Shown one piece after another: positions 6,816 to 51,092 of a stretch of 64,000 nucleotides of DNA. Each line of letters begins with the position of its first letter. Position 1 is the stretch's first letter. The notes below the pieces were generated by a model. It did not search any database. It was not told the origin of the DNA and worked only from the letters and a program-made list of their open reading frames with translations. The DNA is from an uncultured Candidatus Saccharibacteria bacterium. Its GTDB lineage: Bacteria; Patescibacteriota; Minisyncoccia; UBA6257; 2-01-FULL-56-20. Location: NCBI GenBank assembly GCA_964505005.1, contig CAZDFQ010000002.1:92310-156309 (forward strand). Reading direction: 5' to 3'. Made by a program: the position numbers and the translations under genes.

Positions 6816-7100
6816 TTCAATTTAATTTTTTGACAAATATTCTGCAATTTGTATAATCTTTTCATACTTTTCGGCTATTGATGCAAAGATATGCATAACT
6901 TAATTCGGATGGGCGCATTTGTAGTGCGCTATTTGGATGCATAGAAAGGTCGAAAGAAATTCAGCATCACTTGTACATTTGGCAGCGAGGCAACGCAAAA
7001 ATAACCAAACTTTTGTGATTGCCGAGCGAACCAAATGATGGAACGAAGTTCCATGATTTTTGTGGTGAGTTTGGACCACTAGAGTGAGCTTAGAGAATAA

Positions 7101-7397
7101 ATGGCACAAAGCGATCAGGAATTTCTGGAATTTCTCGTCAAGGCGTTGGTTGACCACCCGGACGATGTGAAAGTGGACAGGAAAGTGGACGAGATGGGCG
7201 TGCTTTTGTCTTTGAGGGTTAACCCTCAGGACATGGGACAGGTGGTTGGTCGGCAGGGAGCCACGGCTAAAGCCATCCGCTCGCTGCTTCGAATTGTGGG
7301 AGTGAAGAACAACGCCCGCGTCAATCTGAAAATTGAAGAGCCGGAAGGCAGCACTCGTTCGCCCCGGCCGGCGCCGACCGGAGAAAGCAGTTATTGA
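7101..7397 (+). CDS. KH-domain RNA-binding protein (YlqC/UPF0109 family)
   Basis: VGRQGATAKAIRSLLRIVGVKNNARVNLKI contains the KH GxxG core. Its position after rpsP is conserved. Confidence 0.8.
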   Translation: MAQSDQEFLEFLVKALVDHPDDVKVDRKVDEMGVLLSLRVNPQDMGQVVGRQGATAKAIRSLLRIVGVKNNARVNLKIEEPEGSTRSPRPAPTGESSY

Positions 7398-7458
7398 TTT
7401 TTAATTCGGATGGGCGCATTTGTAGTGCGCTATCCGGATGCCAATAATTGCCAATGCA

Positions 7459-7492
7459 AAAACCGCCCTGAGCTTGTCGAAGGGCGGTTTTT
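7459..7492 (+). terminator. Rho-independent terminator after the KH-protein gene
   Basis: aaaaccgccctgagcttgtcgaagggcggttttt: a GC stem followed by a U-run. Confidence 0.6.
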
Positions 7493-7700
7493 GTTGTGCC
7501 TAATTGACCCCGCACCTTTTGGTAAGAATTCACGCAGCACTTTCTTTCATCATAAAATATATGTAACTCGTGCGCCAAAAGGTGCGGGGTTGACTCTTTT
7601 CACTGTTCTGTGGTAGTTTGGCTTCAGCATAATCCAGCCGCACAGCAATGGGCTGTGAGGGCCGGCCGCTAATGACAATCGAATAGAGGAGGGAACTGCA

Positions 7701-8570
7701 ATGTCTAGAAACTTTCGTGAGTTACTCGAGGCGAAGTGGTCGGAAGGGAAGTTCGTTTGCGTCGGACTCGACAGCGAGTTCGGGAAGATTCCCGAATCTG
7801 CTCGCCGTCCCGGCAACGAGCGCGACATCGATGTCGCCAACACCATCGTCGAGTTCAACCGCGCCATCGTGGAAGCGACCAAGGACATCGTCTGCGCCTA
7901 CAAGCCGAACATCGCGTTTTACGAGGCGCACGGCAGCGAGGGGCTCGCGGCCTTGCACCGCACCATCGTGGACATCCACATTCTCGCGCCGGATGTGCCG
8001 GTGATTCTCGACGCCAAGCGCGCGGACATCGGCAACACCAACAATGGATATTGCCAGATGGCGTTCGAGTGGCTTGGGGCGGATGCGATCACGGTGCATC
8101 CGTACTTCGGAGCCGATGCGCTCCAGCCGTTCCTCGACCGAGCGGATAAGGGCGTTATCGTGCTCTGTCGCACGTCCAACCCGGGTGCAGGCGAGTTCCA
8201 GAATCTGTCCGTGGGCGGCGAGCCGCTCTATCGCTTCGTGGCTCGTTACGTCGCAAGCGAGTGGTGGAACAGGAACGGCAACTGCGCGGTGGTCGTCGGC
8301 GCGACTTATCCCGAGGAGCTTCGGGAAGTCCGCGGCATCGTCGGCGACCTGCCGATTCTCATTCCGGGGGTCGGCTTCCAGCAGAAGGATGTGCCTCTCG
8401 AAGAGCAGGTGCGGCAGGTCGTTTCCGCCGGCAAGGACAGCCGCGGCTGGGGGATGATTATCAATTCCTCGCGCGGCATCATCTTTGCCTCCAAGGGGCC
8501 GGACTTTGCCGAGGCAGCCCGGCGCGAGGCAGGCAAACTCCACGAGCTCATCATCCGCTGCCTTGGCTAG
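7701..8570 (+). CDS. pyrF: Orotidine 5'-phosphate decarboxylase, type 2 (long form)
   Basis: VCVGLDSEF... and DAKRADIGNT (the DxKxxDIxxT active-site motif). About 289 aa, as in type 2 ODCases. GC3 is very high compared with flanking genes. The minus-strand ORF 7722-8618 is a GC shadow ORF. Confidence 0.8.
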   Translation: MSRNFRELLEAKWSEGKFVCVGLDSEFGKIPESARRPGNERDIDVANTIVEFNRAIVEATKDIVCAYKPNIAFYEAHGSEGLAALHRTIVDIHILAPDVPVILDAKRADIGNTNNGYCQMAFEWLGADAITVHPYFGADALQPFLDRADKGVIVLCRTSNPGAGEFQNLSVGGEPLYRFVARYVASEWWNRNGNCAVVVGATYPEELREVRGIVGDLPILIPGVGFQQKDVPLEEQVRQVVSAGKDSRGWGMIINSSRGIIFASKGPDFAEAARREAGKLHELIIRCLG

Positions 8571-46417: not shown

Positions 46418-47635
46418 ATGAAGATGAAAAGGGTCCATCCGAGAATCAAAAAGGAGAAAACGAGCAATGCTTCGATAAACATCAAGGTTGTCGGCATTGG
46501 CGGCGGTGGCGGCAATGCGGTATCCCGAATGAGCAGGAATTTCATCCGCGGCGTGGAATTCATCGCCATTAACACCGACCATCAGGATTTGGACCACACC
46601 TCGGTCCGCCGGAAAATTTACATCGGCCGAAATCTGACCAGGGGCCTGGGCACGGGCATGAACCCCGAGCTCGGCCGCCAGGCCGCTGAAGAGAACCGGA
46701 GTGAAATCGCCGAGACCCTGAAAGGCGCGGATTTGATTTTTATCGCCGCGGGCCTGGGCGGCGGCACCGGCAGTGGGGCCGCGCCAGTGGTCGCGGAGAT
46801 CGCCAAACAATCCGGCGCCCTGACCCTGGCTTTCGTGACCAGACCATTTGCTTTCGAAGGCGTGCAGCGCGAGCGCATTGCTCAGGAAGGCATTGTCAAG
46901 CTCCGCGACAAAGTGGACGCTTTAGTTGTCGTGCCCAATGACCGAATCTTCAGCATTATCTCCAAAGACACGCCGCTTCTGAAGGCCTTTGAAGCCATCG
47001 ACGATGTTCTGCGGAACGCGCTTCAGGGCATTGTCGAGCTGATTGTGGTGCCGGGCATTATCAATCTCGATTTCGCCGATGTGAAATCGATTATGGAAGG
47101 CACCGGCGCGGCGATTGTGGGCTTGGGCGTGGCGGCCGGACCGGAGCGGGCCGTGGAAGCGGTGCGCCAGGCGATAAATTCGCCGCTTCTCGAAATCAGC
47201 GCCGAAGGCGCCAAGGGCATTTTGCTCGGCGTGGCCGGCGGCCGGGACTTGAAAATGAATGAAGTTAACGAAGCAGCGCGGCTGGTGGCCCAGGCCGCGG
47301 ACCCGGCAGCGAGAATCATTTTCGGCGCCTACCGCGACCGGAACATCAGGCCGAACCAGCTGAAAATAATTCTCATTGCCACCGGTCTCAACGGCCTGAC
47401 GCACGCCAATTCTCTTTTCGGGACTTTTCAGGCCAAGCGGGAAAATTTGCTCAAAGAGGAAAAAGAGCCACCGTCGAGGTTAGACGAATCGCCGATTGCC
47501 GGCTCCAAAGAAAAAATTTCTCCCTTAGCTGCTGATAAAACTGCTTACCCCGAATCAAAAAAGAAACCTCCTAAAGCCGACAAGGACAGCGAAATCTGGG
47601 ACATTCCTACTTTCCTGCGTAAAAAGAGAAAGTAG
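46418..47635 (+). CDS. ftsZ: Cell division protein FtsZ. Start chosen at the ATG 46418; the track ORF begins at 46382, inside the promoter repeat.
   Basis: IKVVGIGGGGGNAVSRM...GGGTGSGAAPVVAEIAK (tubulin signature) and a C-terminal DIPTFLRKKR tail. Confidence 0.9.
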   Translation: MKMKRVHPRIKKEKTSNASINIKVVGIGGGGGNAVSRMSRNFIRGVEFIAINTDHQDLDHTSVRRKIYIGRNLTRGLGTGMNPELGRQAAEENRSEIAETLKGADLIFIAAGLGGGTGSGAAPVVAEIAKQSGALTLAFVTRPFAFEGVQRERIAQEGIVKLRDKVDALVVVPNDRIFSIISKDTPLLKAFEAIDDVLRNALQGIVELIVVPGIINLDFADVKSIMEGTGAAIVGLGVAAGPERAVEAVRQAINSPLLEISAEGAKGILLGVAGGRDLKMNEVNEAARLVAQAADPAARIIFGAYRDRNIRPNQLKIILIATGLNGLTHANSLFGTFQAKRENLLKEEKEPPSRLDESPIAGSKEKISPLAADKTAYPESKKKPPKADKDSEIWDIPTFLRKKRK

Positions 47636-47699
47636 GAATGTCCCAAGGGAAGGGGGTCGGTCAATCCACTCACCCCGACCCCCGGCTTAAGAAACCTCC

Positions 47700-48000
47700 G
47701 GTTTCTTACGTCGCTCGCTACGCTTGCTCCTATTTTTCCACCACGGGGTGAGCGGTGCGCTTCTCCCGCATCGGAAGGCAAGGAGCGAAGCGACTGTCGG
47801 AAACCGAGGGTGTCCGAGATAGTGGGGGCGGGAGAAGCGCGAAGAACGGCAGTTTCCCGTGTAGGAAATTACTCAAAACCGAGAGGTTGTGAGGGAGCTC
47901 CGACGAATGTCGGAGCGACGGGGAATTCCCGACCTTTTTGAGAAGGAAGAAAAGGTAGAGTAAATTCCATACCCCTTTAACATAAAATAGAGGCTCTCTC
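47700..48000 (+). ncRNA. Candidate structured non-coding RNA of unknown class. Strand uncertain.
   Basis: About 300 bp without a credible ORF, GC-rich. It has long-range complementarity gcgcttctcccgc (47757-47769) / gcgggagaagcgc (47833-47845) and local hairpins (gctccgac-gaat-gtcggagc). A promoter-like ttgaaa...tataat lies at 48035-48075, just before the next gene. Confidence 0.25.
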
Positions 48001-48091
48001 CACTCGATGCTCTATCGTCTACCCCAAAATGACTTGAAATTGCTTGCGTTCCATAAGTATAATAGTATAATTTACTCGAAGAATTAAAAAT

Positions 48092-48478
48092 ATGGCAGCA
48101 CGAGAAAACGAAGTGGTCAAAAAAGTAATCACATTTATTCAGAAACAACAATCGGAACGCTTCCGCGTGCTTAACAATACTGCTGGGTCGGATAAAAAGA
48201 TTATAAACGGACAGTTTCCAGACATTATCTTCTTACAGAAAGAACCGCCTCCGAACAATAACATATTGTTTGTGATGAGGGTGGAGAATGGAGGTAATAT
48301 GGTTGATAGCATCCCGGTATGGAGAGCGCTTGGAAGTGCGCCGAGTGCTTTTTATATCGTTGTCCCCAAAAATAAGGTGGATGAAGCGAAAAAACTTGCT
48401 ATTGCTACGGGTGTTCGAGCGCGATTTGCATGGTTCGAAATGGAGGGAGATAAAGTAAAACAAGTTAACTATGAGTAA
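48092..48478 (+). CDS. Hypothetical protein (128 aa), first gene of an overlapping pair
   Basis: No recognised motif. GC is lower than in flanking housekeeping genes. Its stop overlaps the next ATG by 8 nt (atgagtaa). Confidence 0.4.
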   Translation: MAARENEVVKKVITFIQKQQSERFRVLNNTAGSDKKIINGQFPDIIFLQKEPPPNNNILFVMRVENGGNMVDSIPVWRALGSAPSAFYIVVPKNKVDEAKKLAIATGVRARFAWFEMEGDKVKQVNYE

Positions 48479-48923
48479 TCTTATTATCGGTGCGTTACTT
48501 GCAGTTTTCGGCGGCTACATCGGCGACGAGATTCGTTCTTGGCGACAACGTTGCAACGAACGAAAGGCAATTAAGATTTCTCTTTGCGACGAACTTAGTA
48601 TAATAGAATCAACGATAAACAATATGCATCAAGTTTGGGAAAATGCCAAAGTTTTTCCACAAAACTTCGTTGCCGATTTATTATCCAATACCATTGCTTA
48701 CGACGGCCTTCGGACAAGGCTGTTTCTTATAAAGGATGCTACACTTCGGAAGAAAATAGTTGCTTTTTACAAGAAACTTAGGGACACAGTAAAGAAAACC
48801 GAAGGGAAAATTGGTACCCTTGCTCAAACACCAGAAGCGGCTGCGGAACAAAATGCTTTTGACACTTCATTTCAAACGCTCGGAACAGAAGCCAAAGATA
48901 TTAAAGAGGCTCTCGAAAAATAA
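48471..48923 (+). CDS. Hypothetical N-terminally membrane-anchored protein (150 aa), translationally coupled to 48092
   Basis: MSNLIIGALLAVFGGYIGDEI (TM), then a helical soluble domain. Confidence 0.4.
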   Translation: MSNLIIGALLAVFGGYIGDEIRSWRQRCNERKAIKISLCDELSIIESTINNMHQVWENAKVFPQNFVADLLSNTIAYDGLRTRLFLIKDATLRKKIVAFYKKLRDTVKKTEGKIGTLAQTPEAAAEQNAFDTSFQTLGTEAKDIKEALEK

Positions 48924-49059
48924 TTGTTTTAGAATGTCCTATTCTGTAAATTATGTTTCTACGAGATAGATTCGAAGTTGTTCATAATTTGTCTATCCTT
49001 CTATCGATTTATTGAGTGTCAGCGGTTCCGTTTCCATTGACTCGCCGGTGATTTTTGAT

Positions 49060-49187
49060 TAACCGGCCGCCGATAATTGCCCGATTTGTTTTTTAATACG
49101 GACAGGTCTTCCTTCTGTATATTTTTCAATCTTGGCAATGGAGTCCGCTATATCCTTGATGTAGAGCTCGGGTTTTCTTTTAGACAT
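49060..49187 (-). pseudogene. Truncated HepT (DUF86) toxin remnant overlapping the MNT stop (42 codons, then a stop)
   Basis: Minus-strand translation MSKRKPELYIKDIADSIAKIEKYTEGRPVRIKKQIGQLSAAG*. The N-terminus matches HepT (LxDIxxxIxxIExY). Its ATG overlaps the MNT stop in the atgtctaa arrangement. It is far shorter than the ~110-140 aa of intact HepT. Confidence 0.45.
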
Positions 49188-49512
49188 AAATTGTTTCCTG
49201 AAGAATATCTGCCTTAATGGCGTCTTTCAGCGCTTTTTTGGAAATCAAATCAACCTTTCTCCCCAGAACCTCGCTTAAAAAATTTTCCAAGCGTATAAAA
49301 TCGAAGAATCCGATGGGCGCGTCGAATTCAACGAGAATATCGACGTCACTCCCGTTTTTTTGTTCTTCGCGGGCGAAAGAGCCGAAAATACCCAGTTTTT
49401 TTATATGAAATCTGGACTTCAATAACGGCAGCTGGGCGCTTATTTTCTTTCTTATCTCTTCTTTTTCCGTTTCCATAAATTCAACTATAGGTGATATTTT
49501 GCGGCCCCGCAA
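49180..49512 (-). CDS. Nucleotidyltransferase-domain protein (MNT/MntA-type antitoxin)
   Basis: GIFGSFAREEQKNGSDVDILVEF, the GSxxRGxxxxxSDxD polymerase-beta-like NTase motif. Confidence 0.75.
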   Translation of the reverse strand: MRGRKISPIVEFMETEKEEIRKKISAQLPLLKSRFHIKKLGIFGSFAREEQKNGSDVDILVEFDAPIGFFDFIRLENFLSEVLGRKVDLISKKALKDAIKADILQETIYV

Positions 49513-49544
49513 GACGGCAGACGATTATGCGACCGCTAAAATTT

Positions 49545-50942: not shown

Positions 50943-51092
50943 ATGAAAAGCCATTATTACTGCAAAAAGTGCGACATTTATTTTTACGAAGAAGATAAAT
51001 TTCCGAACATCAACCGGATTCATTTTGAATGCGGTTCCCGGGCAAAACTTCTTAAATATTTCCCGGAACTTGAGAAAAAAGAGGAGGAGTAA
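50943..51092 (+). CDS. Small zinc-ribbon protein candidate (49 aa)
   Basis: MKSHYYCKKCDIYFYEEDKFPNINRIHFECGSRAKLLKYFPELEKKEEE (CxxC...C). Below the ORF-track size cutoff; no clear RBS. Confidence 0.25.
   Translation: MKSHYYCKKCDIYFYEEDKFPNINRIHFECGSRAKLLKYFPELEKKEEE

Follow-up and report, generated by a model that had tools for sequence, protein, structure and literature searches.

What do the two small overlapping genes that stand between the core genes ftsZ (cell division) and rmuC (recombination) on a contig of an uncultured Candidatus Saccharibacteria bacterium encode, and what could the two proteins do together? The genes lie at positions 48092–48923 of a 64 000-nt stretch (GenBank assembly GCA_964505005.1, contig CAZDFQ010000002.1, positions 92,310–156,309 of the forward strand); this whole stretch is called the window in the following and all positions refer to it. 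The Patescibacteria, also referred to as candidate phyla radiation, are small-genome and largely episymbiotic bacteria. Very few defence systems are known in this group (bioRxiv 10.1101/2025.02.28.640651). A first-pass annotation, which was made from the letters of the window, had described the genes as a translationally coupled pair of proteins without recognisable domains in an accessory context. We find that the pair, subsequently named A-B after its open reading frames (ORFs), is a previously unannotated two-gene family. Based on its architecture and context we read it, with a rough probability of 0.4, as a membrane-tethered nuclease module that would act against phage or other foreign DNA. 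The features on which this reading draws are the following:

48034–48063, + strand: sigma-70-like promoter candidate (TTGAAA, 18-nt spacer, TATAAT; 11/12 matches) from a consensus scan
48092–48478, + strand: ORF A, ATG start, 128 amino acids (aa), predicted cytosolic protein with a PD-(D/E)xK restriction-endonuclease-like fold
48218–48223, + strand: codons of P43-D44 in ORF A, the 'PD' motif, directly before strand 2 (residues 45–48) of the model
48278–48286, + strand: codons of R63-V64-E65 in ORF A, at the end of strand 3, the canonical (D/E)xK position
48471–48478, + strand: 8-nt overlap of A and B, ATGAGTAA; the ATG of ORF B lies inside the last two sense codons of ORF A and the stop codon of A follows
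48471–48923, + strand: ORF B, ATG start, 150 aa, predicted N-terminal hydrophobic helix followed by a conserved four-helix bundle, predicted cytoplasmic
48477–48524, + strand: codons of residues 3–18 of ORF B (NLIIGALLAVFGGYIG), predicted single membrane-anchor helix (hydropathy and family alignment)

Homologues of ORF A were found in 41 protein clusters (∼122 aa, 51–76% identity) and homologues of ORF B in 29 clusters (∼153 aa, 54–70% identity), all of them unannotated or labelled 'hypothetical'. Averaged over the alignment columns, identity amounts to 64% in A and 66% in B, invariant positions are numerous in both, and a relative of B follows immediately after a relative of A in 10 out of 10 distinct close loci. 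By this conservation A and B are genuine genes and not chance ORFs. An exhaustive profile search with A yielded 65 representatives among 1.84 billion proteins; the A family is therefore small. Neither protein was matched by the sequence profiles of Pfam, PADLOC, PHROGs or NCBIfam. For the A protein of the window no Pfam match was obtained at E up to 1 and no threshold of a curated PD-(D/E)xK family was reached.

The coordinates of the two ORFs and their 8-nt overlap agree with those reported in the first-pass annotation. The junction reads TATGA(A/G)T(G/A)A in 10/10 distinct related loci, in which the sequences are only 42–68% identical. Conservation of the overlap among such diverged loci points to a fixed ratio of A and B expression and, by inference, to a complex of the two proteins. 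The promoter-like site ends 29 nt upstream of the ATG of ORF A; the consensus scan yielded five sites of this kind in the region against 3.1 expected. Further upstream a terminator-like hairpin (47919–47931) ends a GC-rich intergenic region. With a promoter-like site of its own and this hairpin upstream, the pair looks like a separate transcription unit and probably has its own transcription start. The GC content of the pair is 0.412 compared to a mean of 0.463 for the window, corresponding to the 12th percentile of 832-nt segments, a genuine though modest difference in composition. The annotation had placed the pair below its neighbours in GC; this holds for the ftsZ side upstream (0.55–0.61) but not for the side of the MNT gene downstream (0.42–0.45), which is close to the pair.

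The structure of the ORF A protein was modelled with AlphaFold from the family alignment; the model is confident, with a predicted local distance difference test (pLDDT) of 89.4 and a predicted template modelling score (pTM) of 0.82. The model displays a helix at residues 2–20, strands at 25–28, 45–48 and 58–64, a helix at 70–81, a strand at 86–92, a helix at 93–106 and strands at 111–118 and 121–127. This topology comprises an alpha-beta-beta-beta-alpha-beta core, which is the core fold of PD-(D/E)xK enzymes, plus an alpha-beta-beta extension. Listed among the fold-level matches are SfsA, YaeQ, BsaWI, LlaBIII, Cfr10I, Cap4, HamA and Can2. On the strength of the model ORF A is assignable to the PD-(D/E)xK restriction-endonuclease fold. 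The earlier view of the 128-aa protein as a soluble unknown gives way to this assignment, and the statement that the pair has no recognisable domains stands for the sequence profiles (Pfam, PADLOC, PHROGs and NCBIfam) but not at the level of structure.

The residues expected at the active site of this fold were followed through the family. Strand 2 is preceded by the expected acidic residue, D44, which 56 of the 57 members of the wider family possess; P43 is the same in all of them. At the third motif, position 63 of the wider family is E in 50/57 members and position 65 is E in 39/57, K in 6 and R in 5. Taken as a motif this corresponds to E-x-E in 39/57 and E-x-K/R in 11/57 members, i.e. PD...ExE or PD...ExK at the canonical positions. 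The E-x-E variant is also found in BamHI. Conservation of such a catalytic-type signature in the wider family argues against a purely structural role of A. The clade that contains the window copy (39 sequences) carries K/R-x-E instead, with K or R at position 63 in 38/39 sequences (R in the window) and E (37) or D (2) at position 65; the 'HD' that the wider family has in helix 1 is lost in this clade. Judged from the alignment, strand 3 of the window clade would keep an acid and a base on the same face in an order that is swapped in comparison to the classical motif. The charge swap at 48278–48286 together with the loss of HD could be a compensated rearrangement of the active site or an inactivation.

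Weaker signals were also obtained from the distant A members. These gave repeated sub-threshold Pfam matches, and the nuclease-related families that recur among them are members of a single clan (HSDR_N_2, TnsA-like, Uma2, AHJR-like, Hjc, MmcB-like and VRR_NUC); the best match, to MmcB-like, reached 21.9 bits with a cut-off of 22. Sequence-profile searches of the PDB with two A alignments (A1 and A3) returned nothing significant, and the A profile aligned weakly to the restriction-endonuclease-like entry 3ijm_A over a 'PD...iiEV' stretch (E 0.44). A has two features in common with members of the PD-(D/E)xK superfamily such as NgoMIV/Cfr10I, the C-terminal domain of NucS, Hjc/AHJR, MmcB-like (3dnx) and Uma2/DUF820 (3ijm): 'PD' where strand 2 starts and an acidic residue within strand 3. 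In contrast to these, A is minimal at ∼125 aa, without DNA-recognition or partner domains, and the partner of its close copies is always a predicted membrane-anchored protein, in no case a methyltransferase. Long tails rich in Lys, Ala and Pro, similar to those of histone H1, extend some A-domain proteins and would fit a DNA substrate. Such tails were seen in P0160, P0190 and P0192 of the distant A family, outside the window; they are of low complexity, and the sequences look GC-rich from their Ala/Pro/Arg composition.

The second protein differs from A in being predicted to sit in the membrane. Residues 4–18 of ORF B have a mean Kyte-Doolittle value of 2.17 whereas the remainder is hydrophilic. 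Within the helix the small residues G7, A8, A11, G14, G15 and G18 are conserved, and a basic stretch (R22, R25, R27, R31, K32 and K35) follows. The structure model (pLDDT 85.5) consists of one long N-terminal helix and a four-helix bundle. The membrane anchoring of B proposed in the first-pass annotation is thus supported, as a prediction, by hydropathy, by the basic stretch and by the long N-terminal helix. A comparison of B with viral structures gave no significant match.

Distant relatives of A show which parts of this arrangement are constant. In four distant A contexts (L014, L016, L017/L019 and L020) the next gene downstream starts after a gap of 1–18 nt and encodes a protein of 172–183 aa. 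These partner proteins resemble B in a Gly-rich hydrophobic N-terminal helix and a basic 'R..LQK' stretch, but their soluble remainder is unrelated to B and, judged by sequence only, looks beta-rich; no Pfam domain was found in them. In this comparison the constant parts are a nuclease-fold protein and a predicted single-helix anchor, and the soluble domain of the partner appears exchangeable. A cytoplasmic domain that can be swapped is as expected of a sensor or regulator. The combination of nuclease fold and anchor is older than the window clade. According to the source labels, one of the distant partner proteins belongs to a 'Rikenellaceae bacterium' and one other family member to candidate division WOR-3. 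Neighbours of the distant A relatives are of the defence type: one copy lies directly after a type I restriction-modification system, one beside PIN_12, and one between FRG/Ymh and a Schlafen-AlbA_2 ATPase. In L017, L018 and L019 we observed a fixed order consisting of a gene of 114–115 aa, the A-like gene with its anchored partner and Peptidase_C10, followed by Obg in the two longer loci. In this lineage the module may be vertically inherited within the genus rather than mobile.

The close relatives of the pair are rare. They were found in 4 out of 185,579 species-representative genomes, assigned to Saccharimonadales, Paceibacterota, Yanofskybacteria and Saccharibacteria, all of which are Patescibacteria. 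The A-B pair occurs in at least 10 different neighbourhoods. At close relatives these consist of polysaccharide-synthesis genes; of DUF3800 with a caspase-helicase protein; of RhuM, ClpP and an IS1595 transposase; of a second IS1595 transposase; of unannotated genes only; of GT2, an M16 peptidase and ArgRS; of a pilin-like gene; and of a serine recombinase with a Panacea toxin-antitoxin pair directly upstream. A further copy is located on a temperate phage contig from IMG/VR (L013), on the opposite strand; a tyrosine integrase gene (phrog_1, E 5.6e-31) flanks it on one side, and genes for holin, endolysin (phrog_291, E 4.5e-57) and tail proteins on the other. This slot between integrase and lysis genes is one that we take to be a typical site of prophage-carried accessory and exclusion genes. 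Scans of viral contigs with the B alignment and with the alignment of the distant A clade (A4) yielded no match. Defence or mobile genes were seen next to some copies and housekeeping genes next to others, in a sample that is too small for statistics.

We compared the site in the window with 80 metagenomic loci that contain a relative of RmuC (57–76% identity), 10 of which have ftsZ convergent with rmuC. A, B and MNT were present in 0/80 of these loci, including 0/10 of those with the FtsZ|RmuC junction as in the window. The closest relative (L023) is 78–79% identical to the window at the amino-acid level in RmuC, FtsZ and FtsA. The gap between FtsZ and RmuC measures 25–65 nt in five relatives and 400–1200 nt in five others. 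In L023 the slot (7018–8048) holds an unrelated gene of 319 aa and displays no DNA similarity to the 1.9-kb gap of the window (47636–49544). In this lineage, the slot at the convergent FtsZ|RmuC junction is thus a variable one. With a patchy distribution, a variable neighbourhood and its absence from the syntenic site in relatives, the pair is a self-contained accessory cassette with a mobile distribution. The accessory context suggested in the first-pass annotation is thereby confirmed, by varying neighbourhoods, by absence from FtsZ|RmuC in relatives and by the phage copy; homology to housekeeping families and conserved core synteny, which would speak for a core function, were looked for and neither was found for the pair.

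What could such a cassette do? The first-pass annotation had likened the architecture to that of abortive-infection and other defence modules. Architecture and context are the basis on which we consider it fairly probable that A-B is a conflict module of some kind. As a membrane-tethered nuclease module it might work as follows. B would insert into the membrane via its N-terminal Gly-rich helix and expose the four-helix bundle to the cytoplasm. A, a small protein of the PD-(D/E)xK nuclease type, would be synthesised at a constant ratio to B owing to the 8-nt overlap and would be held and regulated by B at the inner face of the membrane. On perceiving a signal linked to infection or entry, B would allow A to act on invading DNA at the place where this DNA enters. 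In this mechanism we infer that A and B bind each other, that B inserts into the membrane in the orientation given, that A is active as a nuclease, that B senses and A acts, and that the pair protects against phage.

Several observations weigh against the tethered nuclease. With regard to A, the window clade has no canonical lysine, carries K or R at position 63 and has lost HD, so that A may be a DNA-binding protein that does not cleave. A membrane partner is missing next to one distant A relative. With regard to B, the hydrophobic stretch of the window copy is short (16 aa compared to 18–19 aa in most homologues). Structure matches of B were limited to generic helical bundles, which makes the sensing role a guess. 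With regard to context, several of the patescibacterial copies lie among housekeeping genes and not in defence islands. No match to A was obtained by tblastn in GenBank phages or PLSDB plasmids, and none of the families in PADLOC-DB v2 (5027 defence models) was hit by either protein at E up to 1.

A more far-reaching version of the tethered nuclease would make A-B an undescribed compact immune module of less than 280 aa. It would combine a minimal nuclease with a single-pass protein whose domain is exchangeable, being a helical bundle in Patescibacteria and apparently beta-rich in distant non-Patescibacteria. Such a module would be a minimal counterpart of Zorya and Kiwa, with K/R-x-E as a functional, charge-swapped ExK. 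This version is tentative and we regard it as somewhat doubtful. In the literature searched we came across no small PD-(D/E)xK protein described as the partner of a protein that is anchored by a single helix. In Kiwa (KwaA and KwaB) a membrane component is coupled to a soluble DNA-acting effector. The proposed logic likewise resembles Zorya, in which, as described in PMC11946911, a membrane-embedded component (ZorAB) is coupled to a soluble effector that acts on DNA (ZorC/D). However, there is no homology of A-B to Zorya or Kiwa in PADLOC or Pfam, B has one helix instead of a motor or a multi-pass protein and the whole pair remains below 280 aa. Two Patescibacteria-restricted genes without annotated domains, ldgA and ddgA ('Dallas'), were obtained in functional metagenomic selections and protect E. 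coli from phage; both are described as single genes that are necessary and that lack structural similarity to proteins known so far (bioRxiv 10.1101/2025.02.28.640651). A-B resembles them in being found almost entirely in Patescibacteria and in lacking annotated domains, but differs, going by the published descriptions of the two genes, as an apparently obligate pair, in contrast to single genes, and in the clear nuclease fold of A.

If A-B is a defence system, its two proteins with 278 aa in total would rank with the smallest candidates for a nuclease-based defence unit that we know of. The constant nuclease and anchor with an exchangeable domain would then offer a simple model of how a signal located at the membrane is passed on to a DNA-cutting enzyme, and the swapped K/R-x-E would extend the known variation of PD-(D/E)xK active sites.

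The same architecture could be read with the roles reversed. In this form of abortive infection A would be an inactive or weak nuclease-fold sensor of a phage DNA structure or protein, and the helix of B would oligomerise and permeabilise the membrane, so that the infected cell is arrested. The helix of B displays a conserved small-xxx-small spacing (G7/A11, A11/G15 and G14/G18), a pattern known from oligomerising membrane helices, and it is the Gly-rich helix that distant partners keep while their remainder changes. The remodelled catalytic motif of A in the window clade would fit a sensor. The position in a prophage recalls exclusion genes of the RexAB type, which likewise form a two-gene operon for one cytosolic and one membrane protein in an accessory slot of a prophage. 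RexB, however, is a multi-pass protein and RexA is not a PD-(D/E)xK protein, and PADLOC gave no sequence match for A-B. A single short helix would also be a weak pore former, and a simple pore would not need a soluble bundle as strongly conserved as that of B (66% mean column identity). Since the wider A family keeps the PD...ExE/K signature, catalysis seems to matter. We judge the reversed roles to be unlikely.

Two small overlapping genes with their own promoter-like site are also what a type II toxin-antitoxin system, including the MNT/HepT type, would look like. As an addiction module A-B would stabilise the mobile element that hosts it, either A as a nuclease or B as a membrane protein being toxic and the other one neutralising. 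The scattered single-copy distribution on mobile DNA fits such a role, as does the location beside MNT in the window and beside Panacea elsewhere. However, no known toxin or antitoxin family or domain was matched in Pfam, PADLOC or NCBIfam, no DNA-binding antitoxin fold (helix-turn-helix, ribbon-helix-helix or AbrB) was found, and a toxin or antitoxin of 150 aa that is membrane-anchored, as predicted for B, and carries a conserved helical bundle would be unusual. Functions as toxin-antitoxin and in defence are not mutually exclusive. We regard an addiction module as distinctly improbable; should A-B nevertheless be a toxin-antitoxin or maintenance module, it would still be a new family without annotation in Pfam, NCBIfam, PHROGs or PADLOC.

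A role outside of genetic conflict has to be considered as well, namely DNA processing at the membrane, e.g. the handling of taken-up DNA in nucleotide-scavenging bacteria, or a repair or recombination nuclease that is held at the membrane. Patescibacteria rely on nucleic-acid precursors from outside and are capable of DNA uptake (Wang et al. 2023, as cited in bioRxiv 10.1101/2025.02.28.640651). Some copies of the pair lie among housekeeping genes, another copy lies near the pilin-like gene, and the copy in the window adjoins rmuC. Yet a general processing function is hard to bring in line with the extreme rarity of the pair (4/185,579 species genomes) and with its absence from all 80 related RmuC loci, including the 10 with the same FtsZ|RmuC synteny. 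The phage-borne copy and the defence-type neighbourhoods of the distant relatives in other phyla likewise argue against it, and we think such a role improbable to the same degree as an addiction module.

Very improbable, finally, is a selfish nuclease or excision-control pair of the mobile element itself, as xisH/xisI are for the cyanobacterial fdxN element: these are adjacent small genes, XisH like A is a small (∼130 aa) stand-alone protein of the PD-(D/E)xK fold beside a small partner gene, and recombinases or transposases lie near several copies of A-B, but many copies have no recombinase nearby, no Pfam match at all and hence none to XisH or XisI was obtained, B, a predicted single-pass membrane protein that is all-helical and contains a four-helix bundle, differs from a soluble excision factor of the XisI type, and the window contains no element-defining flanking repeats beyond one weak 20-nt pair.

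Besides A-B, the slot of the window contains a structured GC-rich region upstream and MNT together with a short HepT-like remnant downstream. The GC-rich intergenic region follows ftsZ at 47636–47960 (+ strand) and has a minimum free energy of −140.8 kcal/mol (z = −4.5 compared to shuffled sequences); the terminator-like hairpin mentioned above is accompanied by a T-run (47919–47931). No Rfam family was assigned to the region, the search of the whole window with Rfam yielding only four distant tRNAs. It is absent from the other A-B loci and from the L023 slot and probably constitutes an unclassified element in its own right. At 47600–47642 the stop codon of ftsZ lies within a perfect inverted repeat (15 nt, loop of 13 nt), which may act as a terminator or as a hairpin with a regulatory role.

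A functional link of A-B to the structured region or to the downstream flank was considered and rejected: neither flank matches the other A-B loci (blastn in the case of the downstream flank) or the L023 slot. We also rejected A-B as part of an MNT/HepT unit, as MNT lies on the opposite strand and the downstream flank is unmatched in other A-B loci. The MNT gene (49059–49512, − strand) is a clear member of NTP_transf_2 (E 6.5e-16) and overlaps by 8 nt an ORF of 42 codons. Of the MNT and truncated HepT that the first-pass annotation had placed here, the former stands; the 42-codon 'HepT remnant' has no Pfam match and no continuation in other frames. If this ORF is a remnant of HepT, the MNT antitoxin is orphaned. 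A HepT gene split by insertion of the cassette was rejected since no HepT-like frame exists beyond the cassette or in other frames.

Flanking repeats were considered as insertion scars and not accepted, because a single imperfect 20-nt pair (16/20) was found, which is compatible with chance. This direct repeat (47979–47998 and 48895–48914) roughly brackets the promoter, A and B, has the common 3′ half AGAGGCTCTC and carries its second copy inside the 3′ end of B; it may be due to chance. Downstream of the slot, in the AT-rich gap between rmuC and a DedA-like gene, an ORF of 49 aa (50943–51092, + strand) encodes MKSHYYCKKCDIYF...HFECGS..., in which a CxxC and a later Cys are arranged as in a zinc-ribbon mini-protein.

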